A stretch of DNA of 64,000 nt from Myxococcota bacterium (GTDB taxonomy: Bacteria; Myxococcota_A; Polyangia; Nannocystales; Nannocystaceae), in NCBI GenBank assembly GCA_039028615.1, contig JBCCHT010000016.1, forward strand, positions 1 to 64,000, in the 5' to 3' direction. A program made the position numbers and the translations under genes. Of this stretch, positions 91-1,748 are shown one piece after another. Under the pieces are notes generated by a model. That model had not been told where the DNA came from. It saw nothing but the letters and a program-made list of their open reading frames with translations, and did not search any database. Every line of letters begins with the position of its first letter. Position 1 is the first letter of the stretch.

Positions 91-438
91 CTAGCCGAAG
101 ATTTCTTCGAACATGTCCTCGTTGAAGCCGACGAGAACGGTCTTGCCCACGCGAATGGTCGGGGCCCGGAGATTACCGGTGGGTCCCAACATGGCGTCGA
201 CGGCCTCGGCCGCGACGGGTCCCTTCAGCGTCCACCTCGAGACCTTCTTGCCCTTGGCCACGAGCAGCAGCGAGCTTGCCTTGGCGATGGCCTCGGCATC
301 GTCGCGGCCGAGCTTGCGGCTGGCGGACACGGTCTCGGTGGCGTGGAGGTCGTTTGCGTCCATGAACTTGGACGCTCGTTTGCACCCCGTTCAACCGGAG
401 CGGTGGTAGTGCCAATCGATGGTCTTGGGATGAGTCAT
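91..438 (-). CDS. ArsC/Spx-family thioredoxin-fold protein, predicted selenoprotein (UxxC; in-frame UGA at 391-393)
   Basis: The ORF-track frame 91..363 continues upstream through one TGA to an ATG at 438, giving MTHPKTIDWHYHRSG-U-TGCKRASKF. The C-terminal GNLRAPTIRVGKTVLVGF is typical of ArsC/Spx proteins, and the TGA occupies the first Cys position of CxxC. Confidence 0.85.
356..375 (-). promoter_or_regulatory. Putative bacterial SECIS hairpin
   Basis: The mRNA reads GCGUCCA-AGUUCA-UGGACGC: a 7-bp perfect stem starting 16 nt after the UGA, with G at the second loop position. Confidence 0.7.
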
Positions 439-605
439 CTGGTGAGCTGGATAGCGAACCGAAGGCTCGGTCGCAATCGCTCGCCCAGATCGCCGAACGG
501 ACCGGTTCGGCTGGCCCTGACGCCGAGATCTTCGCTCCTTTGCTGACACGATGCTGTCAGGAGGGCTCTGATATATCGGCGCCCGACCCGGTGGGGCGTC
601 GCATC

Positions 606-1748
606 ATGGCCGAACAGACCGAACTCAAGCACCGCGTTTCGAAGGCCAGCATTCGGACACTGGCTGCGCACCTGCGGGCCTTCGACCCCGAGTTCCCCCG
701 CGCTCGTTTCGTGCGGCGTGCCACCCGAGGCCTCGAGCCGCTCGAGCTCAAGGCGCGGATCGGGCACGTGGCGGAGGCCCTGGCCGCATGCTTGCCCCCG
801 TCGTTTCCGCAGGCGGCGGAGGTCATCGACGGGGCCAACGCGCAGGCGCTGGCGGCCCATGGCCCCTCGGAGCGAGACATCCACCATGGGCTCGCCGACT
901 CGGCGTTCCTGTTCTGGCCGCTGTGCACCTACGTGGAGCGCCACGGGCTCGAGCATCTCGATCGTGCGCTGCAGACGATGCACGGGCTGACGCCGCTGGC
1001 CAGCTGCGAGTTCGCGATTCGGCCCTACATCGAGCAGGACTCGAAGCGGGTGTTTACGGTGCTGCGGCGCTGGGTGAAGGACCCCGATCTGCACGTGCGT
1101 CGGCTGGTCAGCGAAGGCACGCGCCCGCGGCTGCCGTGGGGCTCTCGGCTGCGCGCGCTGCAGGCCGACCCCACGCCCTCGGTGCGGCTGCTCGATGCGC
1201 TCTTCGACGACGACGAGCTGTACGTGCGGCGCTCGGTCGCCAACCATCTCAACGACATCAGCAAGGATCACCCGCAGCGGGCGGTGGAGATCGCGGCGCG
1301 CTGGCAGCAGCGCAACGGGAGCGACGAGGTCGCGTGGGTGATCCGCCATGCGCTGCGCGGCTTGATCAAGCAGGGGGACCCGGACGCACTGGCGCTGGTG
1401 GGGATCGGGCGGCCGCGCGTGGAGGTCACCCGCTTTTCGGTGTCACCGTCGCGGCTGACCTTTGGCACCGCGCTCGAGCTTTGCGTGGAGCTCCGCGCCA
1501 AGGCGGGGCAGGACCTGCTCATCGACTATGCGGTGCACCACATGAAGGCCAACGGCACCTTGTCGCCCAAGGTCTTCAAGTGGACGCGGCGCAGCGCGGC
1601 CAAGGGCGAGAGCCTCACGCTCGACAAGCGTCACGCCTTTCGCACCATTTCGACGCGGCGCTATCACGCGGGCGAGCATCGAGTGGAATTGTTGGTCAAC
1701 GGGCGCAGCCTCGGCATGCAGTCGTTCGAATTGGTGGATGTACCTTGA
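606..1748 (+). CDS. DNA alkylation repair protein (AlkC-like HEAT-repeat glycosylase with C-terminal Ig-like domain)
   Basis: Motifs RRLVSEGTRPRLPWG and LYVRRSVANHLNDISKDHP, C-terminal TRRYHAGEHRVELLVNG. Start moved to ATG 606. Confidence 0.85.
   Translation: MAEQTELKHRVSKASIRTLAAHLRAFDPEFPRARFVRRATRGLEPLELKARIGHVAEALAACLPPSFPQAAEVIDGANAQALAAHGPSERDIHHGLADSAFLFWPLCTYVERHGLEHLDRALQTMHGLTPLASCEFAIRPYIEQDSKRVFTVLRRWVKDPDLHVRRLVSEGTRPRLPWGSRLRALQADPTPSVRLLDALFDDDELYVRRSVANHLNDISKDHPQRAVEIAARWQQRNGSDEVAWVIRHALRGLIKQGDPDALALVGIGRPRVEVTRFSVSPSRLTFGTALELCVELRAKAGQDLLIDYAVHHMKANGTLSPKVFKWTRRSAAKGESLTLDKRHAFRTISTRRYHAGEHRVELLVNGRSLGMQSFELVDVP

Follow-up and report, generated by a model that had tools for sequence, protein, structure and literature searches.

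A UGA-containing gene of the ArsC-related NF041106 family in a Nannocystaceae-like genome and its predicted thioredoxin-fold selenoprotein

An in-frame UGA at codon 16 of a minus-strand gene, at positions 91..438 of the window (the whole stretch of DNA analyzed, 64,000 nucleotides), almost certainly encodes selenocysteine (Sec). The gene runs from an ATG at 438-436 through the TGA at 393-391 to a TAG stop at 93-91. With the TGA read as Sec, the product has 115 residues and carries a U16-T-G-C19 redox motif (382..393, minus strand; Cys19 codon 384-382) where predicted helix 1 begins. We predict, with a probability of about 0.7, that this stand-alone gene encodes a thioredoxin-fold selenol-thiol oxidoreductase. 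A standard caller (table-11 ORF list) yields solely a 90-residue ORF at 363-91, which starts at the ATG of Met26 (361..363, minus strand) and lacks the active-site N-terminus. The original prediction, that reading through 391-393 restores this N-terminus and places UGA at the first Cys of a CxxC motif, was confirmed.

The read-through protein matches the curated NCBIfam family NF041106, "ArsC family (seleno)protein" (ArsC_rel_Se_1), with 106.5 bits against a cut-off of 85 and over the entire profile (1-107 of 107), and it has the UxxC near the N-terminus that is expected of members. The 90-residue ORF by itself scores 67.3 bits, below the cut-off. Scores of the read-through protein against related models are 19.9 bits for TIGR01617 (Spx/MgsR; cut-off 75.05), 17.5 bits for the Spx model PRK01655 (cut-off 123) and 20.1 bits for Pfam ArsC (cut-off 24), while TIGR00014 (ArsC) gave no match at E 0.01. 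The gene shares UxxC, UGA and a SECIS-like element with NF041106, and relatives labelled Nannocystaceae and Myxococcota already bear the NCBI name of that family. There is no difference at the family level; minor differences are UTGC in place of the usual UTSC, and a Met at codon +10 that creates the false 90-residue ORF.

This type of protein is also present in the selenoprotein literature. A 2026 review (PMC13188914) tabulates an "Arsenate reductase-like protein, UxxC", citing a 2008 survey (PMC2398784) in which the entry "Arsenate reductase 2, cd03032, UxxC" comprises 42 Sec and 238 Cys sequences, and the same name stands in a table of PMC9312934. Reviews describe predicted selenoproteins of this kind as largely uncharacterized (PMC13188914, PMC9312934). 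No experimental study of the NF041106 family came up in searches of the open-access selenoprotein literature. The "hidden selenoprotein" of the original prediction thus holds as a selenoprotein but not as a new type: its family is curated and had been catalogued before, and the value of the case is a correct annotation fix, not discovery.

Without read-through, the active site is lost and the score falls under the family cut-off (67 vs 85 bits), so that the significance is mainly one of annotation hygiene. Truncation by gene callers, also anticipated, is widespread. A protein search returned 2444 homologs, and among the best 120, one of which is the cluster of the window's own 90-residue ORF, 105 lack the N-terminal motif as defined by our own pattern, eight have C and seven have W at position 16. 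The corresponding numbers for 150 cluster representatives are 107, 34 and eight, with one G. Tryptophan at this position likely reflects miscalling under a code in which TGA specifies Trp. Named homologs among the matches listed carry the labels Nannocystaceae, Myxococcota, Gemmataceae and Deltaproteobacteria. In a passage of PMC13326102, an arsenate reductase-like protein serves as a BLAST example, and truncated selenoprotein annotation is described as routine.

Codon 16 alternates between UGA and Cys among homologs, as had been proposed. We examined 49 loci, of which 48, including the window, are readable at this codon: it is TGA in 45 and TGC in three (L029, L031 and L032, all over the NF041106 cut-off), counts that are not independent since the loci are related to one another. 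L033, a contig-edge fragment without the N-terminus, was dropped from the codon counts, while L034 is among the 45 although it is an Spx/MgsR-like outlier below the NF041106 cut-off. A related-locus search with a single protein gave three loci. In a set of 41 genomes (our own and 40 relatives), 16 match the family: 12 with one TGA, three with none, and one with a contig-edge fragment. Both selA and selB are present in all 12 TGA genomes (12/12), and also in all three Cys-form genomes. The sole family match in the 13 genomes of this set without a selA match is the fragment, found in a genome that is 71% complete (G013). A sample of 301 genomes from the phylum contained 41 matches over the NF041106 cut-off, each with one TGA (41/41), and in the 30 of these loci that were fetched the TGA is at the Cys position (30/30).

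Several of these loci have features of their own. In L032 (G006:C28:296458-296781) and L031 (G022:C1:208459-208779), both from one genus, the Cys-form gene and selA are arranged head-to-head, and selB comes just after. L034 (G028:C49:23845-24168) encodes an Spx/MgsR/YffB-like protein (TIGR01617, 55.5 bits) that keeps LLRRP and has a TGA at the first Cys followed by a hairpin; it shares its contig with selB and represents a further UxxC type in the ArsC/Spx superfamily.

The genome is equipped to make selenoproteins, in agreement with the original prediction of a Sec-using organism. A search for selA, selB, selC and selD located all four over their cut-offs: tRNA-Sec (selC) on contig C10 (anticodon tca, RF01852, 68.6 bits), selA on the window's own contig (C16:107744-109084, 402.7 bits), selB on C38 (280.6 bits) and selD on C12 (385.4 bits). 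The assembly (G000) is 96.7% complete, with 12.3 Mb and 68% G+C; its size and composition, together with the homolog labels, indicate that the host is probably a Nannocystaceae-like myxobacterium. The selD match (G000:C12:10471-12416, minus strand) lies within a 627-residue open frame, with a flavoprotein-oxidoreductase-like match directly upstream, perhaps as a fusion or an adjacent gene; the SelD match is free of internal stops. A 146-residue ORF (L080:6386-6826; G000:C16, about 111.4-111.8 kb) lies some 2.3 kb beyond selA, and its start, H-C-D-G-P-C-G-I-Y-D-P, resembles what we take to be the nickel hook of Ni superoxide dismutase.

A bacterial SECIS-like hairpin is located at 356..375 on the minus strand. 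Its 7-bp stem pairs 375-369 with 362-356. The 6-nt loop, AGUUCA (368-363), lies 22 nt beyond the UGA, and its second position is a G, followed by U; the Met26 ATG spans the loop and the 3′ arm. Stem, spacing and loop G are all where the original prediction had placed them. The published bSECIS rules (PMC13188914, section 5), applied by our own script and not by bSECISearch, specify a loop of 3-9 nt, a stem of 4-16 bp, a minimum free energy at or below -7.5, a G in the first two loop positions and a spacing of 16-37 nt. The window hairpin falls within all of these ranges, with a 6-nt loop, a 7-bp stem, G at the second loop position, a spacing of 22 nt and a folding energy of -12.2 kcal/mol.

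Taken singly, the hairpin in the window gene is only moderately unusual and is not significant (p about 0.06): 6% of its synonymous shuffles fold equally well and 12.5% conform to the SECIS rules. Against dinucleotide shuffles, z depends on the length that is folded: -4.3 at 29 nt, between -1.7 and -2.5 at 41-64 nt, and -0.5 at 94 nt. The strength of the case comes from conservation, since 43 of the 45 TGA genes conform to the rules, compared with none of the three Cys genes and a mean of 14.4% of 200 synonymous-codon shuffles per gene. The two exceptions fail the energy rule (-6.8 kcal/mol). The mean hairpin energy is -12.3 in TGA genes vs -8.0 in synonymous shuffles, and 15 of the 45 genes are individually at p ≤ 0.05.

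Synonymous codon choices follow the pairing of the stem. Serine at codon +7 is always TCC (37/37, vs 31/188 elsewhere in the same genes), and arginine at codon +8 is always AGG (5/5, vs 12/251 elsewhere in the same genes). The third bases of Ala at +6 and Asp/Glu at +11 form 25 G-C, eight G-U and two A-U pairs, with three mismatches. In a 12-sequence alignment, the seven stem pairs hold in 82% of cells, compared with 70.5% in shuffles and 26-46% in slid registers. The RNAalifold consensus of these 12 sequences did not return the hairpin and gave another, weak structure instead, which we attribute to one subclade that pairs one base out of register; the named pairs were therefore counted instead. 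A hairpin at a like distance in a clade with different amino acids fits selection acting on RNA structure.

An AlphaFold2 model of the protein, computed on a 56-sequence alignment with U entered as C, has a pLDDT of 94.6 and a pTM of 0.88. The predicted fold opens with the strand-helix-strand unit of a thioredoxin and closes with strand-strand-helix; the insert between them comprises a helix (45-53), two strands (57-62, 65-70) and a second helix (77-83). Foldseek placed Spx first (E 6.6e-4, TM 0.59, probability 1.00), while the best VIA-align matches are the ArsC-related 3gkx and YffB 1rw1 (Z 8.7, rmsd 2.8 Å over 85-89 residues), followed closely by glutathione transferases and glutaredoxins (Z about 7). 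These matches are moderate (TM 0.5-0.6, Z 8.7), and no close solved relative turned up, yet the model makes membership in the ArsC/Spx/YffB thioredoxin-like fold class clear. The expected superfamily features are present in the model, namely a thioredoxin core with the CxxC at helix 1 and a conserved Pro before the third core strand. This is Pro93, in the L-R-A-P93 motif (160..171, minus strand), at the thioredoxin-fold cis-Pro position and presumably in the cis state. C19, R91 and P93 are each invariant in the 56 aligned sequences, and A92 is found in 53. The inserted subdomain carries a conserved basic segment, VAKGKK (residues 60-65; 244..261, minus strand), at a predicted β-hairpin turn.

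The "ArsC/Spx-family" assignment of the original prediction is therefore upheld for the fold, but not for the residues behind arsenate reduction in ArsC and RNA-polymerase regulation in Spx. Among solved structures, the family profile matches Spx proteins best (E 1e-11); in this alignment U16 and C19 correspond to Spx Cys10 and Cys13, K62 to Arg60 and A92 to Arg92, while Gly52 falls in a 4-residue gap, so that none of Spx Gly52, Arg60 and Arg92 is kept. The Arg position of the ArsC HX3CX3R motif is K20 here (T in 33/56). Of the ArsC arginine triad, Arg60 and Arg107 were mapped through the Spx alignment: K62 stands in place of Arg60, and Ala92 in place of Arg107, which we take to correspond to the residue ahead of the cis-Pro. 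ArsC activity is described as needing the HX3CX3R motif and an Arg60/94/107 triad, and YffB, which lacks the triad, has been proposed to be a glutathione-dependent thiol reductase (both in PMC3169414). In Spx, according to PMC2801614, Gly52 is required for α-CTD binding and Arg60 for activation.

On the best reading of these residues, the protein would be neither an arsenate reductase nor an Spx. Since neither the ArsC arginines nor Spx Gly52 and Arg92 are kept, we commit to the oxidoreductase. According to established bacterial biology, SelB-GTP-Sec-tRNA(Sec) would bind the hairpin at 356-375 via its loop G and deliver Sec to the UGA 22 nt upstream. As the fold and the motif suggest, Sec16 would face Pro93 from the N-terminal end of helix 1 and attack a disulfide or another oxidized thiol on a substrate; Cys19 would then resolve the mixed selenenylsulfide. 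The resulting U16-C19 bond may be re-reduced by glutathione or by the thioredoxin system; gshB (glutathione synthetase) and trxB (thioredoxin reductase) are both in the genome, over cut-off. The conserved basic residues R13, R21, K62, K64 and R91 probably confer selectivity for an anionic substrate or partner. YffB and its ArsC-related counterparts (PDB 1rw1, 2kok, 3gkx), likewise without the ArsC arginine triad, are only 17-18% identical to the window protein, and the Brucella protein described in PMC3169414 has a single Cys where UxxC is found here.

It is unlikely that the protein is a Sec-using, glutaredoxin-type reductase of arsenate or another oxyanion, as the family name suggests. The ArsC fold, the H-x3-U layout (H12 in 35/56) and several conserved basic residues that lie close to the active site in the sequence favor such an activity, and the E. 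coli-type ArsC (TIGR00014) and its UxxS selenoprotein form share the fold and the position of the nucleophile. However, those proteins have CxxS or UxxS in place of UxxC, and the substitutions at all three mapped arginine positions, the missing TIGR00014 match and the lack of a recurring ars neighbor in the 48 loci argue against it. The genome also encodes two proteins with the LMW-phosphatase fold and a closer ArsC-like selenoprotein. As the ArsC arginines are not kept, "arsenate reductase" is probably a misleading label for NF041106.

Equally doubtful is an Spx/MgsR-like redox-sensing transcription regulator, in which Sec16-Cys19 would act as the switch and the VAKGKK hairpin would contact DNA or RNA polymerase. 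Spx is the top match by both family profile and Foldseek, and B. subtilis Spx (PDB 1z3e, 6gho) shares with the window protein the thioredoxin fold with an inserted subdomain, the place of the CxxC and the C-terminus L-R-x-P-...-VG-[FY]-N-E; in addition, this is a solitary gene with a basic product (17 K+R vs 13 D+E). Against this reading, the Gly52 loop is deleted, Arg92 is replaced by Ala and Arg60 by Lys, Sec takes the place of Cys10, and both Spx models score far below their cut-offs. The insert is predicted to hold a β-hairpin here, whereas the description of YffB/Spx-type proteins in PMC3169414 has a helical bundle. A broader conjecture, and a long shot, is that NF041106 as a whole comprises Sec-switched transcription regulators, an analogue of Spx outside Firmicutes in which a Sec16-Cys19 bond would sense oxidant and the basic VAKGKK β-hairpin would take over from the helical surface of Spx in touching RNA polymerase or DNA. 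If true, a bacterial regulator could then be produced only as far as selenium is available.

It is highly improbable that the TGA is not recoded, being instead a true stop (of a pseudogene, or ahead of a 90-residue protein from Met26), a sequencing error or a Trp codon: the frame from Met26 is open and held as a protein in databases, and W occurs at this position in seven of the best 120 of 2444 homologs, but the TGA is retained at one codon across 45 loci with both flanks conserved, the Met26 codon is ATG in only seven of the 45 genes and lies inside the hairpin, and the sense alternative in genomic loci is Cys, not Trp. Sequencing error was rejected, as no alternative base is listed at 391-393 in the contigs of the probable source run and of three other studies that span this codon, and 44 other loci have TGA at the same codon. 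A variant code was likewise rejected because TGA is the commonest stop of the genome, ending 2963 of 4669 long coding-like ORFs.

To compare the surroundings of the gene, the 864 stop-to-stop frames in the flanks of 48 loci (about 1.5 kb; 5 kb for three) were searched against one another with BLASTP. No neighbor in this set is common to more than six loci or shared with the window, and there is consequently no operon clue to the substrate or reductant of the predicted oxidoreductase. The divergent neighbor at 606-1748 (plus strand) encodes a DNA alkylation repair enzyme/HEAT-like protein (PF08713, 22.7 bits, cut-off 21), which does not cluster with neighbors of other loci.

A scan of positions 1-700 for σ70 promoters and terminators found neither. 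A promoter-like TTGCGA-17 nt-TATCCA is located at 448..476 (minus strand), 9 nt before the ATG and without a Shine-Dalgarno sequence. The same layout (TTG-N3, 17-18 nt, TA-N4, 6-10 nt before the ATG, no Shine-Dalgarno) occurs in six of 14 related loci (the window, L020-L022, L031 and L032), while four of the other eight have a Shine-Dalgarno sequence instead. A leaderless or short-leader mRNA is thus possible for this selenoprotein gene. One metatranscriptome contig (run X8) spans 196-427 with three differences in 232 bases, although contigs cannot show transcription. The contig end cuts off the downstream context of the gene. Positions 1-90, at the very start of contig C16, are G+C-rich and weakly palindromic; a repeat element was rejected here, as this segment is single-copy in the genome and folds no better than shuffles.

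At least ten genes of the genome are candidates for redox selenoproteins, two of them ArsC-like. A motif-plus-hairpin scan of 228,720 TGA triplets gave 58 candidates, from which nine besides the window gene were picked by eye as redox-like; the remaining 48 mostly look like chance. All nine match AhpD-, Prx-, SelL-, TlpA/ResA-, DsbA- or ArsC-like models with U at the redox-motif position, three of them over the curated cut-off. Eight (L071-L077 and L079; C2:229521, C5:96454, C21:184047, C33:133832, C14:16632, C18:139362, C60:23537 and C68:22945) comprise four AhpD-like proteins with CxxU and one each of a TlpA/ResA-like, a Prx-like and a SelL-related protein and a DsbA-like protein with UxxC. 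A review states that aerobic bacteria rarely retain selenoproteins; provided that the host is, as it seems, an aerobic myxobacterium, ten candidates would be a modest counter-example. The ninth, a second ArsC-superfamily gene (G000:C65:40851; L078:89-460, plus strand), carries its TGA at the codon of the first Cys (U-G-T-C), together with a SECIS-like hairpin. It lies outside NF041106, is 15% identical to the window protein, scores 82.1 bits against the TIGR00014 cut-off of 106 and keeps the R before Pro, which places it nearer to true ArsC.
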